Source: Octopus vulgaris
Lineage: Eukaryota
Length of the DNA: 64,000 bases
Direction: 5' to 3'
Assembly: GCA_951406725.2 (NCBI GenBank)
Contig: OX597814.1
Location: 70,680,001 to 70,744,000 of the forward strand
The translations under genes and the position numbers were made by a program. The notes beneath the pieces were generated by a model. It worked only from the letters and a program-made list of their open reading frames with translations. It ran no database searches and had not been told where the DNA came from. Position 1 is the stretch's first letter; every line of letters starts with the position of its first letter. Below are positions 2,171-62,639 of the stretch, in pieces.

Positions 2171-2286
2171 CTATCAGCACCTTCTTCTGACCATTCTCCT
2201 ACGCACATGTCTAGGTAGACACACAACAGTAGCCACTCCTACCAAAATTACTATAAATTCTTTCTACGACCTTAAGGGATACTAAG

Positions 2287-3022
2287 CTCAACCACATACA
2301 GATAAGCAGGCGTTTCAGCACCCAGTCATAGTGTTGTAGGAGCTGAGTTAAACAGCTTCTCCCTGGTCGGAAACCATGTTGGGTGTCGGGCAGCAAGTCA
2401 TTCTCTTCAAGGAAGGTGATCAGCTTCCTTCTGACTATTCGTTCCATGACCTTGCTGATGTGTGAGGTCAGAGAGATAGGTCTATAGTTCTTGGCTTCCG
2501 CTCTGCTACCTCCTTTATGAATGGGGCATATTTTACCTTCCTTCAGTTTTCTTGGAAGTTTGCCAGCTGCAAGGAAGCTCTGAAAGAGGAACTGCAGTGG
2601 TCTTGCTAGGACTCTCTTACATGCTTTTAGGAAGATTGCCGGGAATCCATCGGGGCCAGTAGCTGAGTCTGTTTTCATTTCATCTATAGCCTTGATTACA
2701 TCGTCTTCCTTTATATCGATGTAATCTATCGTCGCCGCCTCTGATTTTATATCTGCAGTGGTAAAAAAGTCAGTTGGATTGGTGATTTGGAGATGCCCAA
2801 GGGGTGGAGTGAAAACACTCTTGAATTGCTCATTCACTATTTCACTTACCCTCATTGGTTTTCCTGTAAGTGTGCCATCCTTTTCGAGGAGTGGCCCTAT
2901 TCTACAGTGCACCATAGCTGTTGCTTTGGCATACGTGTAGAAAGCTCTGGGGTGAGATTTTATGTTGTCTATAGCCCAGGCTTCTTTGTCTGCTCTTTCC
3001 TTTTCATGGGAGAGTTGCAGAC
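2287..3022 (-). mobile_element. CR1-group LINE fragment (region upstream of and into the RT), subfamily B
   Basis: ORF 2211..2915 contains SATGPDGFP, KNYRPISLTSHISKVMERI and QHGFRPGRSCLTQLL. It is a diverged homologue of 8850-9545 and abuts (TA)n. Confidence 0.9.
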
Positions 3023-3437
<415 letters not shown>

Positions 3438-3586
3438 CTAAATAAATATAAGAGAGTGGTCACTATATGGCTCACTCTAGCACCAGTTAATCCAAAAGGT
3501 TTCAACCACAAAAAATACATGCTTCCCATGAAAGTCAGTACGATTGTTAGCTCACACGGACAGGGCAAATAAAAAATAACAAAATA

Positions 3587-3682
3587 CAGATTATTTTGGG
3601 ACAATTGTTTCGCTATTAATGAATTAAATGTAATTTTACTTACAATAAAATCCACTTGTAGCTCTTCGGCCAAAACTATCTG
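3587..3682 (-). ncRNA. Type I hammerhead ribozyme motif (array copy 1)
   Basis: Reverse complement of the motif at 4487-4582. Confidence 0.75.
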
Positions 3683-4120
3683 GATGAAATCCACTCAATC
3701 ACACGCCAGATTTTACCATAACGATAGATACGCGTGTGGTTCAATTGATTACATCCGACGTTATAATTCAAATGCCCCAACTAACAGCGCGCCAAACTTT
3801 CACTGAAAACAAATACAGCATTTAGAAATAAATGCAGCATAATTATAATTAATTAATAAGGGTGAGAGAATTAGATACTAATTTAATAGTATATCTATTC
3901 TACACCAAGTGGCCTAGTGCTCCGAGAAACCTGGATTATTATAATATTTTATAATATATTATAATATTTTTACAAAATAAATATAAGAGAGTGGTCACTA
4001 TATGGCTCACTCTAGCACCAGTTAATCCAAAAGGTTTCAACCACAAAAATACATGCTTCCCATGAAAGTCAGTACGATTGTTAGCTCACACGGACAGGGC
4101 AAATAAAAAATAACAAAATA

Positions 4121-4216
4121 CAGATTATTTTGGGACAATTGTTTCGCTATTAATGAATTAAATGTAATTTTACTTACAATAAAATCCACTTGTAGCTCTT
4201 CGGCCAAAACTATCTG
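4121..4216 (-). ncRNA. Type I hammerhead ribozyme motif (array copy 2)
   Basis: Reverse complement of the motif at 4487-4582. Confidence 0.75.
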
Positions 4217-4486
4217 GATGAAATCCACTCAATCACACGCCAGATTTTACCATAACGATAGATACGCGTGTGGTTCAATTGATTACATCCGACGTTATAA
4301 TTCAAATGCCCCAACTAACAGCGCGCCAAACTTTCACTGAAAACAAATACAGCATTTAGAAATAAATGCAGCATAATTATAATTAATTAATAAGGGTGAG
4401 AGAATTAGATACTAATTTAATAGTATATCTATTCTACACCAAGTGGCCTAGTGCTCCGAGAAACCTGGATTATTGTGGATTTCATC

Positions 4487-4582
4487 CAGATAGTTTTGGC
4501 CGAAGAGCTACAAGTGGATTTTATTGTAAGTAAAATTACATTTAATTCATTAATAGCGAAACAATTGTCCCAAAATAATCTG
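4487..4582 (+). ncRNA. Type I hammerhead ribozyme motif (array copy 3)
   Basis: Stem I cagatagttttgg/ccaaaataatctg, core CCGAAGA (4500), stem II gcta...tagc, GAAA, palindromic stem III ACAATTGT, GUC triplet at 4567-4569. Confidence 0.75.
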
Positions 4583-5021
4583 TATTTTGTTATTTTTTAT
4601 TTGCCCTGTCCGTGTGAGCTAACAATCGTACTGACTTTCATGGGAAGCATGTATTTTTTGTGGTTGAAACCTTTTGGATTAACTGGTGCTAGAGTGAGCC
4701 ATATAGTGACCACTCTCTTATATTTATTTTGTAGAAATATTATAATATATTATAAAATATTATAATAATGCAGGTTTCTCGGAGCACTAGGCCACTTGGT
4801 GTAGAATAGATATACTATTAAATTAGTATCTAATTCTCTCACCCTTATTAATTAATTATAATTATGCTGCATTTATTTCTAAATGCTGTATTTGTTTTCA
4901 GTGAAAGTTTGGCGCGCTGTTAGTTGGGGCATTTGAATTATAACGTCGGATGTAATCAATTGAACCACACGCGTATCTATCGTTATGGTAAAATCTGGCG
5001 TGTGATTGAGTGGATTTCATC

Positions 5022-5117
5022 CAGATAGTTTTGGCCGAAGAGCTACAAGTGGATTTTATTGTAAGTAAAATTACATTTAATTCATTAATAGCGAAACAAT
5101 TGTCCCAAAATAATCTG
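5022..5117 (+). ncRNA. Type I hammerhead ribozyme motif (array copy 4)
   Basis: Same motif; core at 5035, GUC at 5102-5104. Confidence 0.75.
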
Positions 5118-5554
5118 TATTTTGTTATTTTTTATTTGCCCTGTCCGTGTGAGCTAACAATCGTACTGACTTTCATGGGAAGCATGTATTTTGTGGTTGA
5201 AACCTTTTGGATTAACTGGTGCTAGAGTGAGCCATATAGTGACCACTCTCTTATATTTATTTTGTAAAAATATTATAATATATTATAAAATATTATAATA
5301 ATCCAGGTTTCTCGGAGCACTAGGCCACTTGGTGTAGAATAGATATACTATTAAATTAGTATCTAATTCTCTCACCCTTATTAATTAATTATAATTATGC
5401 TGCATTTATTTCTAAATGCTGTATTTGTTTTCAGTGAAAGTTTGGCGCGCTGTTAGTTGGGGCATTTGAATTATAACGTCGGATGTAATCAATTGAACCA
5501 CACGCGTATCTATCGTTATGGTAAAATCTGGCGTGTGATTGAGTGGATTTCATC

Positions 5555-5650
5555 CAGATAGTTTTGGCCGAAGAGCTACAAGTGGATTTTATTGTAAGTA
5601 AAATTACATTTAATTCATTAATAGCGAAACAATTGTCCCAAAATAATCTG
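5555..5650 (+). ncRNA. Type I hammerhead ribozyme motif (array copy 5)
   Basis: Same motif; core at 5568, GUC at 5635-5637. Confidence 0.75.
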
Positions 5651-5927
5651 TATTTTGTTATTTTTTATTTGCCCTGTCCGTGTGAGCTAACAATCGTACT
5701 GACTTTCATGGGAAGCATGTATTTTTTGTGGTTGAAACCTTTTGGATTAACTGGTGCTAGAGTGAGCCATATAGTGACCACTCTCTTATATTTATTTTGT
5801 AAAAATATTATAATATATTATAAAATATTATAATAATCCAGGTTTCTCGGAGCACTAGGCCACTTGGTGTAGAATAGATATACTATTAAATTAGTATCTA
5901 ATTCTCTCACCCTTATTAATTAATTAT

Positions 5928-6825
<898 letters not shown>

Positions 6826-7620: not shown

Positions 7621-10600
7621 CTACCCTCTCTAAGTCCAGTTTGCCGTGGCTGGCCACTGATCTAAGAGAGAGTTTGTAGCTGCTGCCCTTAGGTTACCTT
7701 CGTACCTTGCAGTGGGTTCATCTGGGATCCCGGAAAGCAGCTTGTCTAGATGTTTTTTGAAAATGTCCACATCCGCATCATGTAGATCTCTTAGTTTTCT
7801 TGGCAGTTTGTTGAACAGCTGAGGGCCCCTGAACCCCAGGCTATTACAGTATCTGCTCCTTACCCTGGATGTGGAAGACGGGACCTTTGGCACCACACAG
7901 TGACGACCTGTACGGGGATTGGAACAGCTCTCAATTCCAAAATTTGGTGCTAGTCCCTCCAGGATTTTCCATATGTATATCACTGCATATCTCTCTCGTC
8001 TTCGTTCCAAGGAGTACAAATTGAGTTCCCTAAGCCTCTCCCAATAGTTCTTTTCTTTCATGGTGGAAATCCTCTGGTGAAATGTCTTTGGATTGTCTCA
8101 AGCTCTGTGGTTAGTTTGACACTATGCGGTGACCACAGTTGGGAGCAGTAGTCTAGGCGGCTTAGGACAAATGTCCTCCATAGTGTCAACATGGTCTCGC
8201 AGTCTCTTGTCCGGAATGTCCTCAGGATCCAGCCAGTGAGTCGTCTGCACATTGTCGCCACCTTCGCGATGTGTGAAGAAAAAGATGCATCGTCACTCAT
8301 GTCTATCCCCAGGTCCCGTATTGATTTCGATACTGGGATTTCGATCCCTCCTGGACCAGTATAGTTGTGTTGTAATGTATATGTGTTTACAGCTTGATAT
8401 TGTAAGGCTTGAAATTTACCAGCATTAAATTGCATGTTGTTGTCTTCAGCCCATTTGTATATGGCATCCAGATCTTGTTGTAAAAGGTCAGCATCAGCTG
8501 GGTTTTTGATTGCCTGTGCTACCTTTGTGTCATCAGCATAGCTAGTGAGGGATGTTGTTTGTGCTACCAAGGGCATGTCAGAGAGCGCCACCAAAACAGC
8601 AAGGGTCCCAAGACTGTGCCCTGTGGCACCCCGCTTGCTATTGGTGTCTTTCCCGAGAGGGCTCCATTGGCTGCAACCATCTGGCTTCTGTCCTTCAGGA
8701 AGTCATGTATCCACTCACCTACTTTTCCTGTTATGCCGAGTCTGAGTAATTTGTGACATATCACTCCGTGGTCGACTTTGTCAAAGGCCTTCGCAAAGTC
8801 GAGATATACCACATCCACCTGTGAGCGATCCAGTAGTTGTTTCAGTACCCAGTCGTAGTGTTGTAACAGCTGCGTAAGGCAGCTTCTTCCTGGGCGAAAG
8901 CCATGCTGTGTGTCAGTGAGACGGTTAGTTTCTTCGAGGAACGTGATCAGTTTTTTTCTGATGATTCGTTCCATGACCTTACTTATGTGTGACGTCAGGG
9001 AGACTGGCCTGTAGTTTTTGCCTCTGCTCTACTCCCTCCTTTGTGGATAGGGCATATGGTGCCTTCTTTTTAGCGCCCTGGGCAGTTTACCGTTAGCCAA
9101 GGAACCACTGAAGGGCTTCTTCAGTGGCTCCCGCTAGGAGCATGCCTGCATGTTTTTAGGAGGACTGCTGGGAATCCATCTGGTCCAGCAGCTGAGTTTA
9201 TTCTCATTTCTTCTATGGCAGATATTACATCCCTCTCTGTTATGTCTATGTGGTCGATGGTTGTTGTTTGGTTTTGGGGTGTTGTGGCATCAAAGAAAAC
9301 TTCTGGGTTTGTGATTTGCATGTGCCCCAGAGGGGATGTGAACGCACTTTTATACTGTTCCTTTAGTATTTCACTTATCCCTTGGGGGTCCTCAGTTAGA
9401 GAGCCCTTTTTATCAAAGAGTGGGCCAATCTTGCAGTGTACCGAGGTGGTTTCTTTCGCAAATTTAAAGAAGGCTTTAGGGTTTGTTTTAATATTCTCTA
9501 TGGCCCTGGCTTCTCTCTCTGCCCTCTCCTTCTCATAGGAAAGTTTGAGTGCAGTTTCCGTTTCAAAAAGTTTCAGGTGGAGTCCCTCATTGTTTCTCTG
9601 CCGTGCATTCAGTTGCTTCGAGAGCTTAGCTCTTCGCCTCATAAGTATTTTCCTGTCTCTGGGAATAACGTTCCTATGCCCGCTGGCTTTTTTCTCCGGG
9701 ACAAACTTATGGCATATGTTCTGTATTGTTGTCATGAAATGTTGGAAATGTGTGTTGGTCTCTTGTGTGGTGATGAAGTCACTCCAGTCATAGCTTTGGG
9801 ATCTCTTCGTTGATCTTCTTCCAGTTTGCCTTATGGAAGTTTAGACTGGATAGGCCTGTGGTATTTTCTAATGGCTGCGTCTCAACTAACTCTCTCATAC
9901 CATATATCATTACCTCTACTAAGTTGTGATCTGAGAGAATTGTAGGTGTTACCATTATGTTGTGGATGAGCATCGGGTTGCTTGTGAAACAGAGGTCCAA
10001 GACATTCTCACCTCTTGTTGGCCGAAGCACTGCTTGTTCCATGAAAAACTTGCGTGTGAGAGCCAACAAGGACTCTGTCTGTCTCTGTTCAAGTGATGTC
10101 ATTCCAGGGAGGAGATGGCCATCTGGCCATTTGACTTTCGGAAGGTTAGAGCTCTCTCCCAGCAGTAGAATGGTGTTACCCTGGTCCAGTCTGTCCAGGA
10201 CTTCTTCTATTCTTCTGAGGCTATCTTCAAACACTCCTTCATGACTAGGGGTGTCTGGTGGCCGATATGTGACACATATTACTATTTTCGGTTGTTTCAT
10301 GTGTACTATCAGTGTGTCACAGACTGAGTTTGAGTGTGTCAACAGTACTATGGGTGTGACATCTTCACGGACGTACAGGGCAACCCCACCATGAGTTCTT
10401 TCCTTCCTGTCTGACCGAAAAACAGTATACTTTGGTATGTGTATTTCTGCATGGTTGTGTTAAAAACTGCTATAGAGGGAAACGTAATGCTTGACAGGTG
10501 CGTTTCAGTCAGCGCTATGCATATTGCATGGTTGCTTGTGCTTAAGTCCCTAAGGTAAGGAATTTTACTCATATTAGTGGGTTTCACCAGACCTCTGACA

Positions 10601-11428
10601 TTCAGCAGAAGCACTGGTGAGATATTTGGGGTGTCAATAAAGGCTGTCGGTGTGGCACCTGGGCTGAGTGTCAACAAGCGGTGCCACCCTGGGTCCCTTG
10701 ATTGTGGTGGTCTTGAGTGCTGTTGTGAGTGCCCCTGGCTCTGAAGACGATGTATCCAGGCCAGTTGTCCCACAATTTTCTCTGCTATTTCCACAAAATT
10801 TCTTTGTTTCTGCTGCCGCCGTCTGCATTTCCTCTGCAAATGTGCGCCTTCTCCTTGTTGGGGCATTCCGCACTATGTCTGCATATTTCTGGGGCAGCTT
10901 GAATTTGTTCTGGTTTTGGTTTCGGTCTTGGTTTTGGTTAAGGCATTTTGGTCGAGTGGGTTTGATGCAATTTCCATAGGGCCTGGGATGAGCGAACCTG
11001 CATCCTTCCCCTGTTTCTCCATGCCAGCAGGTTCCATTCCGGAAGAATTTGCATGTTATCTGGGTTTTCTTGTCCCCAGTTCCTCTCTGTTTTTCTTCCT
11101 CCGTTGGACGGTTGTCCACTGGTTCCTTTCTGCATAGGTCTTTTCATCCGGCTGGTTATTTTCTGTTTCCCCATCGCCGCCTATCTGTTGTTTGCCCTGC
11201 TTGCCTTCTTCGACTGTGGCTGTGGGTGTGTCATTTTATTGACACTCTGTGGTCTGGTGTTTCCTGTTTCCATCTCTCTCTTTGTCTTTATCCACCTTGA
11301 GGACTTGGCTTAGCAAAGCCATGTGTGGTGCAATGAGAGTGTAGGCCCTTTCAACTTCTCTTTTCTTCCTCTCTACCTGCGCCAACGTCCTCATAAAGCC
11401 ATGGCTTTTTTTCAGGGTCGCCATCATA
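7621..11428 (-). mobile_element. Near-full-length CR1-group LINE (subfamily A): CCCH zinc finger, APE endonuclease and RT, frameshifted
   Basis: CKFFRNGTCWHGETGEGCRFAH (CCCH); LLNVRGL, CIALTETHL, TYRPPD, LDLCFT and SDHNLV (APE); YLDFAKAFDKVDH, SGVPQGTVLGPLLF and YADD (RT); [11 protein letters not shown]. Confidence 0.93.
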
Positions 11429-11430
11429 TG

Positions 11431-11476
<46 letters not shown>

Positions 11477-11567
11477 CACATATATATATATACATATATA
11501 TATATATACATATATATATACATATATATATACATATATATATATATACATATACATATATATATAT

Positions 11568-11630
<63 letters not shown>

Positions 11631-11699
11631 CATATATATATACATATATATATATACATATATATATATACATATATATATATATACATATATATATAC

Positions 11700-11749
<50 letters not shown>

Positions 11750-12356
11750 GTATATATATATGTGTATATATATATACATATATGTATATATATATATATA
11801 CATATATGTATATATATATATATGTATATACATATATGTATATATACATATATGTATATATACATATATGTATATATACATATATGTATATATACATATA
11901 TGTATATATACATATATGTATATATACATATATGTATATATACATATATATATACATATATATATACATATATGTATATATATATACATATATGTATATA
12001 TATACATATATATATACATATATGTATATATATATATGTATATATATATATGTATATATATATATGTATATATATATGTGTATATATGTATATATATATG
12101 TATATATATATATATGTATATATATATATGTATATATATATATGTATATATATATATGTATATATATATATGTATATATATATATATGTATATATATATG
12201 TATATATATATATGTATATATATATATATGTATATATATATATGTATATATATATATGTATATATATATATGTATATATATATGTATATATATATGTATA
12301 TATATATGTATATATATATGTATATATATATGTATATATATATATGTATATATATA

Positions 12357-12421
<65 letters not shown>

Positions 12422-12427
12422 CATATA
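11429..12427. repeat. Compound TA/TACA/TATG microsatellite with fold-back symmetry
   Basis: C-containing variants dominate the left half and G-containing variants the right half. The centre has palindromic tatatacatatatgtatata units. Confidence 0.9.
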
Positions 12428-15400
12428 TTTGTGGAAATAGCAGAGAAAATTGTGGGACAACTGGCCTGGATACATCGTCTTCAGAGCCAGGGGCACTCAC
12501 AACAGCACTCAAGACCACCACAATCAAGGGACCCAGGGTGGCCACCGCTGACACCAGCCCAGGTGCCACACCGACAGCCTTTATTGACACCCCAAATATC
12601 TCACCAGTGCTTCTGCTGAATGTCAGAGGTCTGGTGAAACCCACTAATCATGAGTAAAATTCCTTACCTTAGGGACTTAAGCACAAGCAACCATGCAATA
12701 TGCATAGCGCTGACTGAAACGCACCTGTCAAGCAGTATAGCAGATGCAGAAATACACATACCAAAGTATACTGTTTTTCGGTCAGACAGGAAGGAAAGAA
12801 CTCATGGTGGGGTTGCCCTGTATGTCCGTGAAGATGTCACACCCATAGTACTGTTGACACACTCAAAACTCAGTCTGTGACATACTGATAGTACACATGA
12901 AACAACCGAAAATAGTAATATGTGTCACATATCGGCCACCAGACACCCCCCTAGTCATGAAGGAAGTGTTTGAAGATAGCCTCAGAAGAATAGAAGAAGT
13001 CCTGGACAAACTGGACCAGGGTAACACCATTCTACTGCTGGGAGATTTTAACCTTCCGAAAGTCAAATGGCCAGATGGCCATCTCCTCCTGGAATGACAT
13101 CACTTGAACAGAGACAGACAGAGTCCTTGTTGGCTCTCACACGCAAGTTTTTCATGGAGCAAGCAGTGCTTTGGCCAACAAGAGGTGAGAATGTCTTGGA
13201 CCTCTGTTTCACAAGCAACCCGATGCTCATCCACAACATAATGGTAACAGCCTACCAACAATTCTCTCAGATCACAACTTAGTAGAGGTAATGATATATG
13301 GTATGAGAGAGTTAGTTGAGACGCAGCCATTAGAAAATACGACAGGCCTATCCAGTCTAAACTTCCATAAGGCAAACTGGAAGAAGATCAACGAAGAGAT
13401 CCGAAAACATGACTGGAGTGACTTCATCACCACAGAAGACACCAACACACATTTCCAACATTTCATGACAACAATACAGAACATATGCCATAAGTTTGTC
13501 CCGGAGAAAAAAGCCAGCGGGCATAGGAACATTATTCCCAGAGACAGGAAAATACTTATGAGGCGAAGAGCTAAGCTCTCGAAGCAACTGAATGCACGGC
13601 AGAGAAACAATGAGGGACTCCACCTGAAACTTTTTGAACCGGAAACTGCACTCAAACTTTCCTATGAGAAGGAGAGGGCAGAGAGAGAAGCCAGGGCCAT
13701 AGAGAATATTAAAACAAACCCTAAAGCCTTCTTTAAATTTGCGAAAGAAACCACCTCGGTACACTGCAAGATTGAAGCCCACTCTTTGATAAAAGGGCTC
13801 TCTAACTGAGGACCCCCAAGGGATAAGTGAAATACTAAAGGAACAGTATAAAAGTGTGTTCACATCCCCTCTGGGGCACATGCAAATCACAAACCCAGAA
13901 GTTTTCTTTGATGCCACAACACTCCAAAACCAAACAACAACCATCGACCACATAGACATAACAGAGAGGGATGTAATATCTGCCATAGAAGAAATGAGAA
14001 TAAATCCCAGCTGCTGGACCAGATGGATTCCCAGCAGTCCTCCTAAAAACATGCAGGCATGCCTAGCGGGACCATTGAAGAAGCTCTTCAGTGGTTCCTT
14101 GGCTAACGGTAAACTGCCCAGGGCGCTAAAAGAAGGCACCATATGCCCTATCCACAAAGGAGGGAGTAGAGCAGAGGCAAAAAACTACAGGCCAGTCTCC
14201 CTGACGTCACACATAAGTAAGGTCATGGAACGAATCATCAGAAAAACTGATCACGTTCCTCGAAGAAACTAACCGTCTCACTGACACACAGCATGGCTTT
14301 CGCCCAGGAAGAAGCTGCCTTACGCAGCTGTTACAACACTACGACTGGGTACTGAAACAACTACTGGATCGCTCACAGGTAGATGTGGTATATCTCGACT
14401 TTGCGAAGGCCTTTGACAAAGTCGACCACGGAGTGATATGTCACAAATTACTCAGACTCGGCATAACAGGAAAAGTAGGTGAGTGGATACATGACTTCCT
14501 GAAGGACAGAAGCCAGATGGTTGCAGCCAATGGAGCCCTCTCGGGAAAGACACCCAATAAGCAAGCAGCTGCCACAGGGCACAGTCTTGGGACCCCTTGC
14601 TGTTTTTGGTGGCGCTCTCTGACATGCCCTGGTAGCACAAACAACATCCCTCACTAGCTATGCTGATGACACAAAGGTAGCACAGGCAATCAAACCCAGC
14701 TGATGCTGACTCTTTTATAACAAGATCTGGATGCCATATACAAATGGGCTGAAGACAACAACATGCAATTTAATGCTGGTAAATTTCAAGCCTTACAATA
14801 TCAAGCTGTAAACACATATACATTACAACACAACTATACTGGTCCAGGAGGGATCGAAATCCCAGTATCGAAATCAATACGTGGACCTGAGGGATAGACA
14901 TGAGTGACGATGCATCTTTTTCTTCACACATCGCGAGAAGGTGGCGACAATGTGCAGACGACTCACTGGCTGGATCCTGAGGACATTCCGGACAAGAGAC
15001 TGACGAGACCATGTTGACACTGTGGAGGACATTTGTCCTAAGCCGCCTGAGACTACTGCTCCCAACTGTGGTCACTGCATAGTGTCAAACTAACCACCGA
15101 AGCTTGAGACAATCCAAGAGACATTTCACCAAGAGGATTTCCACCATGAAAGAAAAGAACTATTGGGAGAGGCCAAGGGAACTCAATTTGTACTCCTTGG
15201 AACGAAGACGAGAGAGATATGCAGTGATATACATATGGAAAATCCTGGAGGACTAGCACCAAATTTTGGAATTGAGAGCTGTTCCAATCCCCGTACAGGA
15301 CGTCACTGTGTGGTGCCAAAGGTCCCGTCTTCCACTTCCAGGGTAAGGAGCAGATACTGTAATAGCCTGGGGTTCAGGGGCCTTTAAGCTTTTCAACAAA

Positions 15401-15652
15401 CTGCCAAGAAAACTAAGAGATCTACATGATGCGGAATTGGACATTTTCAAAAAACATCTAGACAAGCTGCTTTCCGGGATCCCAGATGAACCCACTGCAA
15501 GGTACGAAGGTAACCTAAGGGCAGCAGCTACAAACTCTCTTAGATCAGTGGCCAGCCACGGCAAACTGGACTTAGAGAGGGTAGCAACAAGGGCGGTGCC
15601 CCAGCATGGCCTCAGCCGGATGGCTGACACAAGTAAAAGAGTAGTAAAAGAG
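12428..15652 (+). mobile_element. 5'-truncated CR1-group LINE (subfamily A), inverted copy of 7621-10798, many frameshifts
   Basis: Begins tttgtggaaatagcagag (reverse complement of ~10780-10797), carries the same APE/RT motifs, and ends agtaaaagagtagtaaaagagta followed by (TA)n. Confidence 0.93.
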
Positions 15653-16459
<807 letters not shown>

Positions 16460-21196: not shown

Positions 21197-21327
<131 letters not shown>

Positions 21328-43245: not shown

Positions 43246-43925
43246 GGACAGAAATTCAAGATCAAATCTAACTTTACTTGTGCCTCTGAAAACATAATTT
43301 ATGTCATAAAATGCTCGGGCTGCCACCAAGACTACGTGAGATCCACGGGACTATCACTCAGACGTAGATGCACACTGCATCGACAACAGATTGCATTCCC
43401 AGAATACAGAATGATACCTTTTAGTGAGCACATTGAGAAATGCGCAAAGCAACTACTACCACAATTTTTAATCTTTCCATTTTACCAATGTGCTATCGGA
43501 TCATCAACACAAATTAGACTAAACAAGGAAACATTCTTCATTGAAAAGTACAAGCCCAGACTTAACCATGCCAACATACTGATACAGAGAAATTCACACC
43601 AAGGGAAAATAAAAAAATTTAAGCGATTATCTCCCTTACACCGGAAAAAATCACTCATTACCTCCCCTTATTTAGAACTCTTTTAAACATAAACATAACG
43701 ATAACTCTATTCAACATAAACATAACGTCGCAAGAAATTTGAAAAGCTAAACGCGAAACCGGTCTTTCTTCTAAATTATGTCATTGTAAGGGAAAAAAAT
43801 TTTTTGTATTCTTCAGACATATTGACGCAAATATATATATTTTTTAACCTTTAAGCCTTCTGTAGTTTTTTCACTTTTTACTATTTTCTATATATTCAAC
43901 CACGTGCTTTCACAAACCAACTTTC
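43242..43925 (+). mobile_element. Penelope-like 3' fragment: GIY-YIG endonuclease, 3'UTR and degenerate HHR (43732-43770)
   Basis: FTCASENIIYVIKCSGCHQDYVRSTGLSLRRRCTLHRQQI...RLNKETFFI...PRLN; downstream aagaaa t TTGAAAA gc taaac gc GAAA ccgg TC tttctt. Confidence 0.85.
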
Positions 43926-43959
43926 TTATATATATATATATATATATACATATATATGA

Positions 43960-56994: not shown

Positions 56995-59900
56995 GCCTAC
57001 TACTACTACTACTACTGCTGCTGCTACCTCAAGGAATCTACCTCCTACTACTTCCACCAGTCATAAAGGTCGCCAAAACCTCGACAAACTATCATCCACA
57101 CCTCTCACAACTCACACACGCACCCACACACCCACTCGAAACCCCATAATTTGCCGTTATTCTCTCCGCCATAGATTGTGCACTGATAGAGACTGCAAAT
57201 TCACCCAATTACCCGGGACAAAACGCATTATCCCCACAAACTACAAAGCCACCACCCTATTACAACACCACCACAACCACCAAAATCTCAAACAAGGAAT
57301 CCCCAAATCTGCCGCTACTCCCAGCGAGACAGATTATGTTTGCACAGGGATTGTCCCTTTACCCATCTCCCGGGGACTCGTCGGACAAATAATAATAAAA
57401 ATAAAAACCAAAAAACCTACAACTCATATGGAAATAACCACTCATATAAAAATAACCACAACCACAGTCACCTACAGTTCCCTAGACAGGAAACTTCTTC
57501 TTCCTCTTTTTTAGCGATAATGAATCTAGCAAAAGAACTGGAAAAAACATCCGCGCTATCACCCACCACCATCCACCACTATCACCCCACTGCACATGCC
57601 ATTAAAAAGCAATCAAATAAACAAATCACCAAAACAATTAAAACCATCCACTCTCAACATTTTTGCTTAATGCCCAAGGCATCAGCCCTTTCACCAATAC
57701 CCAAAAATGGAAGATAAAATTCCTGGAGGACTGGGTCGATGCCCATCCAAACCACATCCCTTTCTTCGTCCTCACTGAAACCCATCTTAGTAACCTTCAC
57801 TTGGAAGCCGAGGTGAAAGTTAAAAATTTCAAAGCCATTCGTGCTGATCGTGCTGGTTCTTCTCTCTCAACCCCTGACAGGGAGGCAGTGGAATCGCTTC
57901 TTGACTTCATGGATGATTTCTTCCTGTCCCAACTGGTGCTCGAACCAACGAGATGTCATAGACTTAATTTTCAGCAATCACACTGATACTATTCACAATA
58001 TTGCAGTGGAGAAAACCCTACTCTCTGATCATGACATGGTTCTCTGTGATCTGAGATTTCACTGGCCAAAATGCAAAACAAATGTCATCCCTCCTGTTCA
58101 TCCATTTGACACTATGGATTTCCACAATGCAAACTGGGAAGCGATCAATAATGATCTTGCACAAGTCGATTGGTACTTCACGCACACATACACACCCACT
58201 AACATCAAAAAGTCATGGCAGTCATTTGTAGACACCATTACGAACATATGTGTCGAATCCCTAGTAATAGAAAATCTCTCGTCAGGAAAATTAAAAGAAT
58301 TAACAAAAAAATCAACAAGCTGAAATACTGTCAACAGCAACACACCAACCTGACTGCCATCTCGTCGCTAGAGATTAAAAAACATAAACTTCAAAACAAC
58401 ATGATGTCTATCATCAATAGTCAGAGAAGAGCTGAAGAGGCCTGGGCCATTGAGAAGATCAAACTCAATCCCAAAGTGTTCTTTTCATTTGCAAAAAAAC
58501 ACAGTCACTGGTTCTACTGTTGGCCCTCTGATTGATGAAAATGGTACTCTTCAAGACAATGCCAAAACCATGGGAGAGATATTGCAGAAACAATATTGCT
58601 CTTTTTTCAGCAATCCTGATATGACTGATCTGGGCTGTATCAGTGATGTTACTCCCCAATACACTTTATCGGACATAACCTTTGGCGCTCCTGATGTCTT
58701 AGCAGCAATAAAGGAAATGAAGCATAATTCAGCAGTAGGTCCCGATAGGTTCCCTGCTTGTGTCTTGAAGATGTGTCAAAACCGACTTTCACCCCCTCTA
58801 GCCAATCTGTGGCGGAACTCACTGGATGCTGGATATATACCAGAAGACCTTCTATTCCAGTCTGTTGTCCCAGTTTTCAAAAAAGGAAACAAATCGCTTG
58901 CCGTGAATTACCGTCCAATCTCACTCACCTCTCATATCATTAAGATATTTGAGAGAGTGCTGAGATCGCGTATGACTCACTTCCTTGAGAGTCATAATAT
59001 GCTGGACTCCAACCAGCATGGATTCCGTAATGGAAGAGATTGCCTGACGCAGCTACTGCATCATTTTGATGACATTTTGAGAGCCTTGGGAGAGGGTTCC
59101 AACACTGATGTCATCTACCTTGATTTCAGCAAGGCCTTTGACAGGGTTGATCATAAGATCCTTTTGAGAAAGCTGTCCAATATTGGTGTCACTGGAAAGC
59201 TGCTGCAGTGGACCAAGTGCTTCCTGTCTAACAGAACCCAACATGTTGTAGTCGAAGGAGTCAAATCCAGCCCAGCCAAAGTCAGTAGTGGTGTCCCACA
59301 AGGCACTGTGTTGGGCCCACTTCTCTTCATCATCTACATAAATGATATTACTGACACCATCAAACACAGTAACATCAGAACCTTCGCTGGTGATTCCAAG
59401 CTCCAGAAGGTCATCAATGGCGTGGATGACCGAATAAGCCTTCAGTCAGACCTACTGGCTGTTGTCCAATGGGCGGAAAAGAACAACATGTTGCTAAACG
59501 AAGACAAATTCGAACTGATCCACTTTGGAAGGGAGGACGCTCTGAAACTCCCATACTCCCTTCCTTCTGGAGAAATTCTCATGGCGTCCAACAACATCAG
59601 AGACTTGGGAGTAACTGTGGACAACAACATAAGCTGGGCTACACATATAAGCAGCAAAGTTGACATGGCCCGCAGAATGTGTTCCTGGATTCTCAGAACC
59701 TTTCAGTCGAGAGATTCCCACACTATTATCCTTCTCTTCTCCACTTTTGCCCGACCCCACCTTGAATACTGCTGTCCACTGTGGTCTCCCTACACAAAAC
59801 AAAATATTATGAGAATTGAAGCTCCCCAAAGGTCAATCACAAAAAAGATAGATGGCATGTCAGACCTTGACTACTGGGGTAGACTAGAGAAGCTGAAACT

Positions 59901-60355
59901 CTATTCACTCCAACGACGCCGTGAACGCTACATTATCTGTATGATGTGGAAAATATTCCATCAGCACTGTCCGAATGATGTTGGCATCACCTTCAAAATA
60001 CATCCAAGGCTTGGACCACGTGCAATCCGTCCACAAGAAAAATCTAAATCGCATCACATAACGACAATACGGCACAATTATTTCACCTCAATTGGACCCG
60101 CTCTCTTCAACATTACACGAGGACACGTTAAAACAGAAACTGACCACACAAATTCAAGAAGTCTTTGGACAAATTCCTTCAAACAGTCCCGGACAAACCA
60201 CCCACACCCGGATATGTCTCCGCAAACAATAACTCTCTGCTCGAATGGGCTTTGGTGCTCAAATCCTGAATTGAAAGACTTCGCCAGGTGGTGCTATTAA
60301 GTTAGACATGGCCTGGGCCAATACTGGCCAAAACCTTTCTAAGTTATTCTAAGTT
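56995..60355 (+). mobile_element. CR1-group LINE (family C): two CCCH-like repeats, partly deleted APE, RT
   Basis: CRYS...LC..RDC.FT(H/Q)LPGT x2; LTETHL, IDLIFS and SDHDMV; tail ttctaagtta x2; (TA)n on both sides. Confidence 0.92.
58450..60300 (+). pseudogene. LINE reverse transcriptase ORF remnant (616 aa; catalytic motif reads FAGD)
   Basis: NYRPISLTS, QHGFR, YLDFSKAFD, SGVPQGTVLGPLLF and LYSLQRRRERY are present; FADD is mutated to FAGD. Confidence 0.85.
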
Positions 60356-60533: not shown

Positions 60534-62590
60534 GTAACGGGAAGCTTTATGAAAATAGACAAAAGACGAAGGCAGGTGGAAAACAAACGAACAATTGTAT
60601 TAGTATGGCGCTCAGGAAATATAAATAAAACAAGTCTTTAACGTTTCGAGCCTACGCTCTTCAACAGAAAGATACGCAGAGAGAAAAAAACACAGAAAGA
60701 AGGAGAGAAAAAAATGCGTGCAGTAGCTAACGAATCAACATGGCGATCTGATTTCGGCCAGAGGTCAAAGATCAAACATGAGACGCGAGAGCGAAATAAG
60801 GGGAGATAAGAGGGTTGATAATATGGTTGAAGGACCAGCTAATAGTGCATAGGAGGGGTCTGGACGTGTGTATGTATAGGGTTGGTGTATGTATTAGTAT
60901 GTATTAGTATGTATTAGTACGTATTAGTATGTATAAGTGTGTGTGTGTGTGTGTATGAGAGAGTATAAGTGCGTATGAGGGGTCTGGACGTGTGTATGTA
61001 TAGGGTTGGTGTATGTATTAGTATGTATTAGTATGTATTAGTACGTATTAGTATGTATTAGTTGGTGTATGTATTAGTATGGCACATCATATATGATGTG
61101 ATGTGAAGTCGTGTGGTGTAGTGGGGAGAAGGGGGAGGAGAGGGGGGAAGAGGAGAGGAGGGGTGAGAGAGAGGAGGGGGAGAAGGAAGGGGAGGAGGGG
61201 GGAGGAAGGAGGAAAGAGGGAGAGGGGGAGTGAGGGAGCAGAGGGAAGGGGAAGAGGGAAGGAGGGAGGGAGAAAGATGGAAGAAGGGAAGGGGAGTAGG
61301 GGTGAAAGGATGAAGGACTGAAGAAGTAGGGGTCGGGGGGAAAGGATAGGTGAGGAGGGGGAGAGTGGGGTTAGATGAGGAGGGGGGAGAGTTGAGACCA
61401 AATGGCGTATAAGAGCGAAGAGAGAAGATTAATTCCTGTTCACGGCGCAAACGGGAATCCGGATGGCCTCTGTGTAAGGACAAACCGAACACAGATAGGT
61501 GTTGCAAGGAGTGACCGGTGGAGCAGAAATGGCGTGAGACCGGTGTGTCGTTCGCAAGGTGGATGTCACGAAGGTGTTCCGCGAACCGGTCAGCCAAGCG
61601 GCGTCCCGTTTGTCCGATGTACAAGGAATTGCAGAGAGAGCAAGAGATGCAATAGATAATATTGCTGGAGGTGCAGGTGAAGGAGTGGATGATGGGATAG
61701 GGTCGATGGTGGGTGCTAGTGAGGCGGGTGGTGTTGGAGAGGTAAGGGCAAGTGCGGCAACGTGGGCGGGAGCAGGGGAACGAGCCGGGTTGGGAGGTAG
61801 GGTCAGGGAAGGAGCTATGGACCAAAAGGTCTCGAAGGTTGTGGGCTCGTTTGAAAGAGGGGAGGGGTCGGTTAGGGAAGAGGTGTGAAGTGGACGGGTC
61901 GGACTGGAGATGACGGAAAGCTCGAAGAATGGTGCGTTGGAGACGTAGGGTCGTGGGGTGGTAAGTGAGGGGAAAAGGGAGGTGGGAGACTACAGGGCGG
62001 GTTCGGGGAGAGAGAGCAGATACACGGTCCACGGACCGTGCTCTGGCAAGGGCGGTGTGGATAGTGGTGAGGGGGTATCCACGTAGGGTGAAGTGGTGAG
62101 CCATACGTTGAGACTGAGTCTCAAAGTCATGGTCGTCACTACAGAGCCTACGTAGACGGAGGAATTGGGAATAGGGGATGGAAAGCTTGGTGTGTTCTGG
62201 GTGGGAGGAAGAGAAGTTGAGGTATGAGTGTGAGTCTGTGTGTTTGTAGTGAATGGAGGTGGTAAGAGTGGAGTGAAGAATGCTAACCGAAATGTCGAGG
62301 AAGGAGACAGAGGTGTTGGAGATAGTGGAAGTGAAGTGGAGGGCTGGATGGAAAGATTGGACGAAAGAGAGGAAGGAATCTAGATGTTCGCGGGAGAGTG
62401 AGGTGGCACCGATAATGTCGTCGATGTAACGACCATATAGTTCGGGAGTGGGACCAGTGAAATTAGAGAATATTTGGGCCTCAACATAGCCAACGAACAG
62501 GTTCGCATAGTTGGGGCCCATTCGCGTTCCCATGGCCACTCCCGAGATCTGATGGTAGAACTCGCCCGCGAATGAGAAGCAGTTCAGAGT
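60534..62590 (-). mobile_element. Penelope-like element, 5'-truncated: RT C-half, GIY-YIG, 3'UTR with duplicated minisatellite and minimal HHR-like motif (60634-60673)
   Basis: GVAMGTRMGPNYANLF, RYIDD, FLDI, HSYL..SSSHP, CxxxRCxTC and IIYCISC..C..LYIGQTGRRLADRFAEH. Confidence 0.93.
61058..62539 (-). CDS. Penelope RT plus GIY-YIG endonuclease (partial, open 493 aa; the low-complexity C-terminus is probably read-through)
   Basis: ORF track motifs as listed for the 60534-62590 element. Confidence 0.75.
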   Translation of the reverse strand: MAMGTRMGPNYANLFVGYVEAQIFSNFTGPTPELYGRYIDDIIGATSLSREHLDSFLSFVQSFHPALHFTSTISNTSVSFLDISVSILHSTLTTSIHYKHTDSHSYLNFSSSHPEHTKLSIPYSQFLRLRRLCSDDHDFETQSQRMAHHFTLRGYPLTTIHTALARARSVDRVSALSPRTRPVVSHLPFPLTYHPTTLRLQRTILRAFRHLQSDPSTSHLFPNRPLPSFKRAHNLRDLLVHSSFPDPTSQPGSFPCSRPRCRTCPYLSNTTRLTSTHHRPYPIIHSFTCTSSNIIYCISCSLCNSLYIGQTGRRLADRFAEHLRDIHLANDTPVSRHFCSTGHSLQHLSVFGLSLHRGHPDSRLRREQELIFSLRSYTPFGLNSPPSSSNPTLPLLTYPFPPTPTSSVLHPFTPTPLPFFHLSPSLLPSSPSLCSLTPPLPLSSFLPPPPLPSPPPLSHPSSPLPPSPPPSPHYTTRLHITSYMMCHTNTYTN

Positions 62591-62639
62591 ATATATAAGT
62601 TATATATATATATATATATATAGGAAGGGACAGGTACCA

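Follow-up and report, generated by a model that had tools for sequence, protein, structure and literature searches.

How did an array of ribozyme-bearing repeats, split into two arms of opposite orientation, come to lie within a (TA)n tract of the Octopus vulgaris genome? The window (the whole 64,000-nt stretch of DNA that was analysed) contains a tandem array of ~534-bp units inside (TA)n, as the initial annotation had described. Units are 533–535 nt long, 99–100% identical across both arms, and flanked by (TA)n tracts at 3025..3439 and 5925..6822. The left arm (3440..4474, 1.9 units) carries the ribozyme sense on the minus strand and the right arm (4475 to approximately 5925, 2.7 units) carries it on the plus strand. 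When the unit is numbered from the predicted cut site, the left arm finishes at a short end, A (+158), and the right arm at a long end, B (~+285), its final 2–4 nt blending into TA; the two ends lie ~127 nt apart in the unit. Orientation does flip at 4474/4475, 12 nt upstream of a stem I, and this junction is blunt, without overlap, joining the 5′-truncated ends of the arms (unit +193 to +439). A likely target-site duplication brackets the array on the plus strand, with the left copy at 3427..3439 (a TA run with CT at the end) and the right copy at 5927..5939.

The plus arm has no ATG-initiated open reading frame (ORF) longer than 41 codons on either strand, which indicates that the unit is non-coding. 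A tRNA search of the unit gave no match and a tRNA origin was rejected, and the reverse transcriptase (RT) plus GIY-YIG ORF that marks an autonomous Penelope-like element (PLE) was absent from the unit. Elsewhere in the window there are many LINE-type RT fragments (RVT_1 match) broken by (TA)n tracts, at 2211–3023, 7630–15800 and 58405–60300, and a run of N near position 21,325.

Five type I hammerhead motifs were recovered, in agreement with the count and positions first reported. Three are on the plus strand at 4487..4582 (core at 4500, predicted cut after 4569), 5022..5117 (core at 5035, predicted cut after 5104) and 5555..5650 (core at 5568, predicted cut after 5637), and two are on the minus strand at 4121..4216 (core at 4203, predicted cut after 4134) and 3587..3682 (core at 3669, predicted cut after 3600). 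The predicted structure has the long stem I, extended stem II and short palindromic stem III that had been proposed (z −3.9, equalled by 0 of 200 shuffles). Co-folding of two copies predicts an 8-bp intermolecular stem III (−56.6 versus 2 × −24.7 kcal/mol). The circular minimum-energy structure of the unit contains the folded ribozyme (z −4.9), although the antisense strand folds equally well (z −5.6), which counts against the reading preferred below. The fold had been called complete; all five motifs do fold, but each has CCGAAGA (U4C), a weaker core instead of the canonical one. Among 146 full ribozyme copies from the first 40 loci, position 4 of the core was U in 116, C in 29 and A in one, and the U4C pattern has 51 genome matches, fixed throughout several separate arrays. 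Passages of Perreault et al. (PMC3088659) describe U4C as considerably reducing in vitro activity yet allowing viroid infectivity.

The Rfam/Infernal search suggested in the initial annotation returned no hammerhead match at gathering or E ≤ 10 thresholds, hence the motif is called a hammerhead from its pattern, its fold and the covariation of its helices. Relatives of the family are present at 72–97% identity, plus more distant families, and in 13 chosen sequences from four families 12 of 24 ribozyme helix pairs were altered on both sides. Pairing was kept in 91% of cells compared with at most 41% in slid controls; shuffling matched these cell measures in 0 of 500 trials and the pair count in 35 of 500. 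As the 13 sequences are mutually related, we read the covariation as support and not as a probability. On this pattern, the ribozyme is under structural constraint across diverged relatives.

Copy number, which the initial annotation had proposed to check by genome BLAST, was addressed by a pattern search of the genome: ribozyme copies with the canonical core number at least 2,169, against none with the reversed pattern. We mapped 77 loci as a non-random sample, 40 being the best matches to the window unit and the rest either found with shorter query sequences or taken from the pattern list. Far from being a peculiarity of this locus, inversion is the usual insertion form of the family (48/77 loci). 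End A was paired with end B in 44 of these inverted loci and like ends were paired in none (p = 1e-13), the remaining four having one unclassifiable end; three further inverted loci outside the 77 are all A/B. Single-arm loci make up the other 29, with 17 finishing at A and 12 at B. Arms reach ~13 units in length, and unit lengths span 531–536 nt, the variation lying partly at homopolymers. Subfamilies 3–8% apart each make uniform long arrays. The strict end pairing extends to a distant retrozyme family, in which four clear inverted loci among 25 are all A/B, and distant relatives retain ends homologous to A and B. In one distant family the unit is also 534 nt at the sole measurable locus.

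At least four more retrozyme-like families were observed whose hammerhead likewise has a long stem II and whose ends are homologous to A and B (L204:5630-6080 on the minus strand, L219, L060:2289-2383, L290, L291). Fold-back elements of ~180 nt (example at L105:1020-1200; 1,922 first-look candidates) contain the U-rich stretch that follows the cut site; they probably represent stubs, short and inverted, left by a related family. The repeat was found in sequencing runs of six organisms.

The inner break points, where the arms meet, follow no comparable rule. They were uniform across ten bins of the unit (p = 0.80, n = 126) and none of the 126 fell within 3 nt of the cut site. A junction linked to the ribozyme was rejected on this basis, and the 12-nt gap between the flip and stem I at the window locus, which had been singled out as noteworthy, is attributable to chance. 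Junctions were resolved at 40 of 46 loci: 15 were blunt, nine had 1 nt of overlap, 13 had 2–6 nt and three had inserted bases, compared with null expectations of 50% at 0 nt and 28% at 1 nt. Long junction microhomology was likewise rejected, with overlap of 0–1 nt in 24 of 40.

The loci show a preference for microsatellite targets, with TA-rich flank at 76 of 77. At 13 of 42 loci, the window locus included, an interrupted TA motif is directly repeated on both flanks (mean 3.9 and maximum 8 in 300 shuffles). In the 38 of 44 loci having enough overlap between arms for comparison, arms diverged by 0.47% within a locus versus 2.57% between loci, and 26 of the 38 had identical arms; this pattern indicates that both arms derive from one source haplotype. 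Copies of the family are dispersed, have 3′ ends at fixed and 5′ ends at random points and carry target duplications, as retrotransposed copies do. The family also shows the inverted 5′-truncated arm and one-sided tail of a non-autonomous Penelope-like element.

Relatives of PLE proteins had been reported within the window and two fragments are indeed present. One is the 3′ part of a family we call PLE-A (43246..43929, plus strand), which lies inside (TA)n and comprises a GIY-YIG end, a U3-A8 hammerhead at ~43732–43770 and a long end at 43929. The second is a distant RT/GIY-YIG fragment at 61058–62599 on the minus strand, 29% identical to PLE-A. We used PLE-A as a comparator family and not as a demonstrated driver. 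It is a young autonomous family whose reading frames for RT plus GIY-YIG are long and open and include a Cx4CxxC linker, the type assigned to the Neptune and Nematis clades in passages of Craig et al. (PMC8557442). In all 13 PLE-A loci retrieved as inverted pairs, a short end is joined to a long end that lies 40 nt beyond it. Of four further pairs in short PLE-A loci, three combine a short with a long end; the fourth, L083, has a motif score of short/short, but its long end is present and carries an internal deletion. The within-locus versus between-locus divergence of PLE-A arms resembles that of the retrozyme family. Two other families, PLE-B and PLE-C, also have two ends each and (TA)n targets, and all three bear minimal U3-A8 hammerheads, a variant described in the relevant part of PMC4209133.

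The proposed mobilisation by PLE proteins is upheld in part, in that the insertion signatures are shared; the window fragments themselves are at most candidate drivers. When the unit was compared with PLE-A, PLE-B and PLE-C loci no homologous end was found save a 10-nt motif common to end B and the PLE-C long end. A search for end B plus an ORF start gave one match, and no autonomous partner was found among the three families, in the pattern search or at single-copy and diverged ribozyme loci. A piece of Penelope ORF occurs somewhere in the flank at 5 of 77 loci. Several features of the PLEs were noted in passing. PLE-A is very abundant (16,374 first-look candidates) and has an upstream ORF of ~450 aa and a 40-nt tail (examples L103, L104). 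A hairpin is predicted immediately upstream of the first ATG in all three families (PLE-A, -B and -C), and its loop contains the long end. At L204, end B abuts a 5′-truncated PLE-C copy in the same direction (a nested insertion or a chimera).

We consider it probable that the array is one insertion of an animal non-LTR retrozyme, which a Penelope-like RT-endonuclease likely wrote into (TA)n all at once. Retrozyme identity, the candidate of the initial annotation, accords with the end pairing, shared haplotype and target duplications, and Penelope-like mobilisation gains support from a footprint equal to that of autonomous PLE-A in the same genome. Arrays would be transcribed, the hammerheads would likely cut the RNA to monomers, probably after pairing up by way of the palindromic stem III, and the monomers would likely be ligated into circles. 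A borrowed protein, likely Penelope-like, would then nick both (TA)n strands, and each DNA 3′ end would prime cDNA. Both cDNAs would be copied from one RNA source, with A (+158) as the start for one strand and B (+285) for its partner. Each polymerase would copy successive units and halt at a random point, and the two halted ends would be joined with 0–6 nt of overlap. The expected product is two diverging arms with unlike outer ends and a short target duplication.

The nature of the template and the origin of the second arm are the points on which two other explanations differ. An uncut linear multimer transcript could serve as template for the same Penelope-driven, two-ended insertion, in which case the ribozyme would be weak or irrelevant and no circle would be needed; we judge this unlikely. 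It accommodates the uniform break points and seamless unit junctions equally well (262 of 265 cut-site junctions are clean, without adjacent indel or substitution), and U4C, fixed in several separate loci (51 copies), implies that this lineage spread with the weaker core. The hammerhead is, moreover, dispensable for Penelope insertion in vitro (PMC11167929). Variants in the family loci comprise 68 distinct ones fixed locus-wide, 77 in single units and six common to some units only. The last six (for example at L031 and L243) also suit a linear multimer and misfit one monomer circle, barring later conversion or assembly mixing; together with the spread of U4C, they count against a pure circle model. 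However, an array copied from a linear template can be no longer than its donor, and a new variant could not come to occupy all of its units in this way, whereas most variants are locus-wide (including two private to the window locus among the first 40 loci), arms reach many units, diverged subfamilies make uniform long arrays, and ribozyme structure is conserved over diverged families. A monomer circle is therefore the favoured template, and the clean cut-site junctions, the lack of break points at that site (0 of 126) and the ribozyme fold in the circular structure are also in its favour. Linear monomers linked by template jumps were also considered and rejected, since there is no pile-up at the cut site and the junctions are clean. 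A 565-nt contig in run X6 contains a whole permuted unit, although circle and tandem DNA are indistinguishable by contig.

If a single primed cDNA folded back and primed itself, the inverted arm would be a copy of the first. Arms of one haplotype are what such copy-back would give, and self-priming has been proposed for rotifer Penelope elements from junction palindromes (in the text of PMC3846280 that concerns them). Many retrozyme loci are formally compatible with it, because multimer arms hold both end sites. In 6 of 13 PLE-A loci (L108, L109, L112, L113, L115, L116), however, the arm with the short end is the longer one and has no tail, hence neither arm can be copied from the other, and retrozyme locus L121 has the same geometry. 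Together with overlaps of 0–1 nt in 24 of 40 junctions and break points that are independent per arm, this geometry appears largely to rule out copy-back, which we regard as improbable. It points instead to a separate cDNA on each target strand, the pair beginning at two fixed sites. Least probable is an origin of the inversion as a fold-back artefact of long reads, or of the arrays as satellite DNA amplified at the level of DNA, without an RNA step. None of the contigs from public runs spans the window junction at 4474/4475, and unit lengths of 531–536 nt vary partly with homopolymers, as polishing errors would. Fold-back chimeras mirror one point, though, whereas here the arms differ in their break points and their outer ends follow a fixed rule, and contigs of public run X15 contain nine other minus-to-plus junctions. 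The scatter of the loci, the fixed position of their 3′ ends as opposed to the random 5′ ones, and their target duplications also argue against this reading.

The kind of element is already known, and the strict end-pairing rule is what the octopus family adds. Animal retrozymes and their proposed dependence on Penelope are treated in passages of Cervera and de la Peña 2020 (PMC7229834) and Li et al. 2026 (bioRxiv 10.64898/2026.07.22.740005). Like animal non-LTR retrozymes, the octopus family consists of non-coding tandem units with one type I hammerhead each, is present in high copy number and co-occurs with Penelope-like elements; circle intermediates and Penelope mobilisation have been proposed for those retrozymes. 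It differs in unit length (534 nt versus 170–400 nt in the sections covered of PMC7229834 and 51–972 in those of 10.64898/2026.07.22.740005) and in a stem II longer by ~43 nt. No pLTR homology was found for it among the three PLE families compared, whereas 21 of 57 Xenopus retrozyme families match Penelope entries, according to the portion of the preprint covered (10.64898/2026.07.22.740005), where it is also reported that eight of nine Xenopus retrozyme dimers failed to cleave. In the literature covered (titles, abstracts and passages of openly accessible papers), inverted two-armed retrozyme arrays with two fixed ends, strict end pairing and the octopus family itself are undescribed.

The likeness to Neptune/Nematis-type, endonuclease-positive PLEs is close. 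These share 5′ truncation, an adjoining inverted truncated copy and a one-sided tail (passages of PMC8557442 and PMC3846280), as well as (TA)n targets, a hammerhead near the 3′ end and two RT start sites. Unlike them, the octopus family has no ORF, its tail is ~127 nt as opposed to 30–40, and its hammerhead is of the canonical type where autonomous PLEs of the same genome have the minimal U3-A8 form. The one-sided Penelope tail is known from Craig et al. 2021 (PMC8557442) and is described as ‘often’ or ‘optional’ in the excerpts of PLE papers covered, but it is present at 44 of 44 loci here. The Chlamys non-autonomous element MRC1 is similar in being a non-coding Penelope parasite with multicopy head-to-tail insertions; MRC1-type elements, as outlined in PMC8557442, differ in having no canonical hammerheads and a 3′ end resembling that of the partner. 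The family can also be set beside L1 twin priming. In L1 twin priming, both target strands prime and the arms are joined at their 5′-truncated ends, as is proposed for the octopus family, the arms being non-overlapping parts of the RNA and the second primer site variable. By contrast, the octopus arms repeat the same sequence and both start sites are fixed.

Until now, the case for Penelope movement of animal retrozymes has been built on their co-occurrence and on likeness to pLTRs; in the octopus genome, a retrozyme family and an autonomous family leave the same insertion footprint. How Penelope inversions and tails form is called an open question in the passage of Craig et al. 2021 (PMC8557442) that deals with them. 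In line with two separately started cDNAs, an anole Penelope protein, a predicted dimer, nicks and extends both strands in vitro, and two start sites bound the tail (Frangieh et al. 2024, PMC11167929). As no difference in start site between the strands was seen in that system, strict end pairing is unexplained by that study. Tentatively, and with less assurance than for the insertion itself, we suggest that an asymmetric two-polymerase Penelope complex might engage a single RNA circle simultaneously at two different, fixed start sites, each serving its own target strand, and that an old 534-nt retrozyme clade might have kept both sites as its cis signal while being otherwise unlike its helper. 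If true, the Penelope tail, the inversions and the retrozyme arrays would all follow from one mechanism. The short/long rule, common haplotype and copy-back-excluding geometry provide sharp predictions for an in vitro system, whose components are available: an RNA that is small and defined, and candidate enzymes that are young and intact.

No RNA run was among the sequencing runs listed as containing the repeat, which is uninformative on expression. Clustered A-to-G and T-to-C changes occur in loose ends over window positions 4235–4755 in runs X1 and X5, which may be RNA. A transcript over the inverted locus would form a long hairpin, hence editing is plausible. A genomic editing signature was not counted: locus-fixed variants showed 19 A-to-G versus nine T-to-C (p = 0.007), and rare variants ten versus six (p = 0.13), with polarity taken from column majority only. 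The 77 single-unit variants from the mapped loci are strand-biased relative to the RNA, G-to-A accounting for 27 of them and C-to-T for nine, and this bias may stem from RT errors or cDNA deamination.
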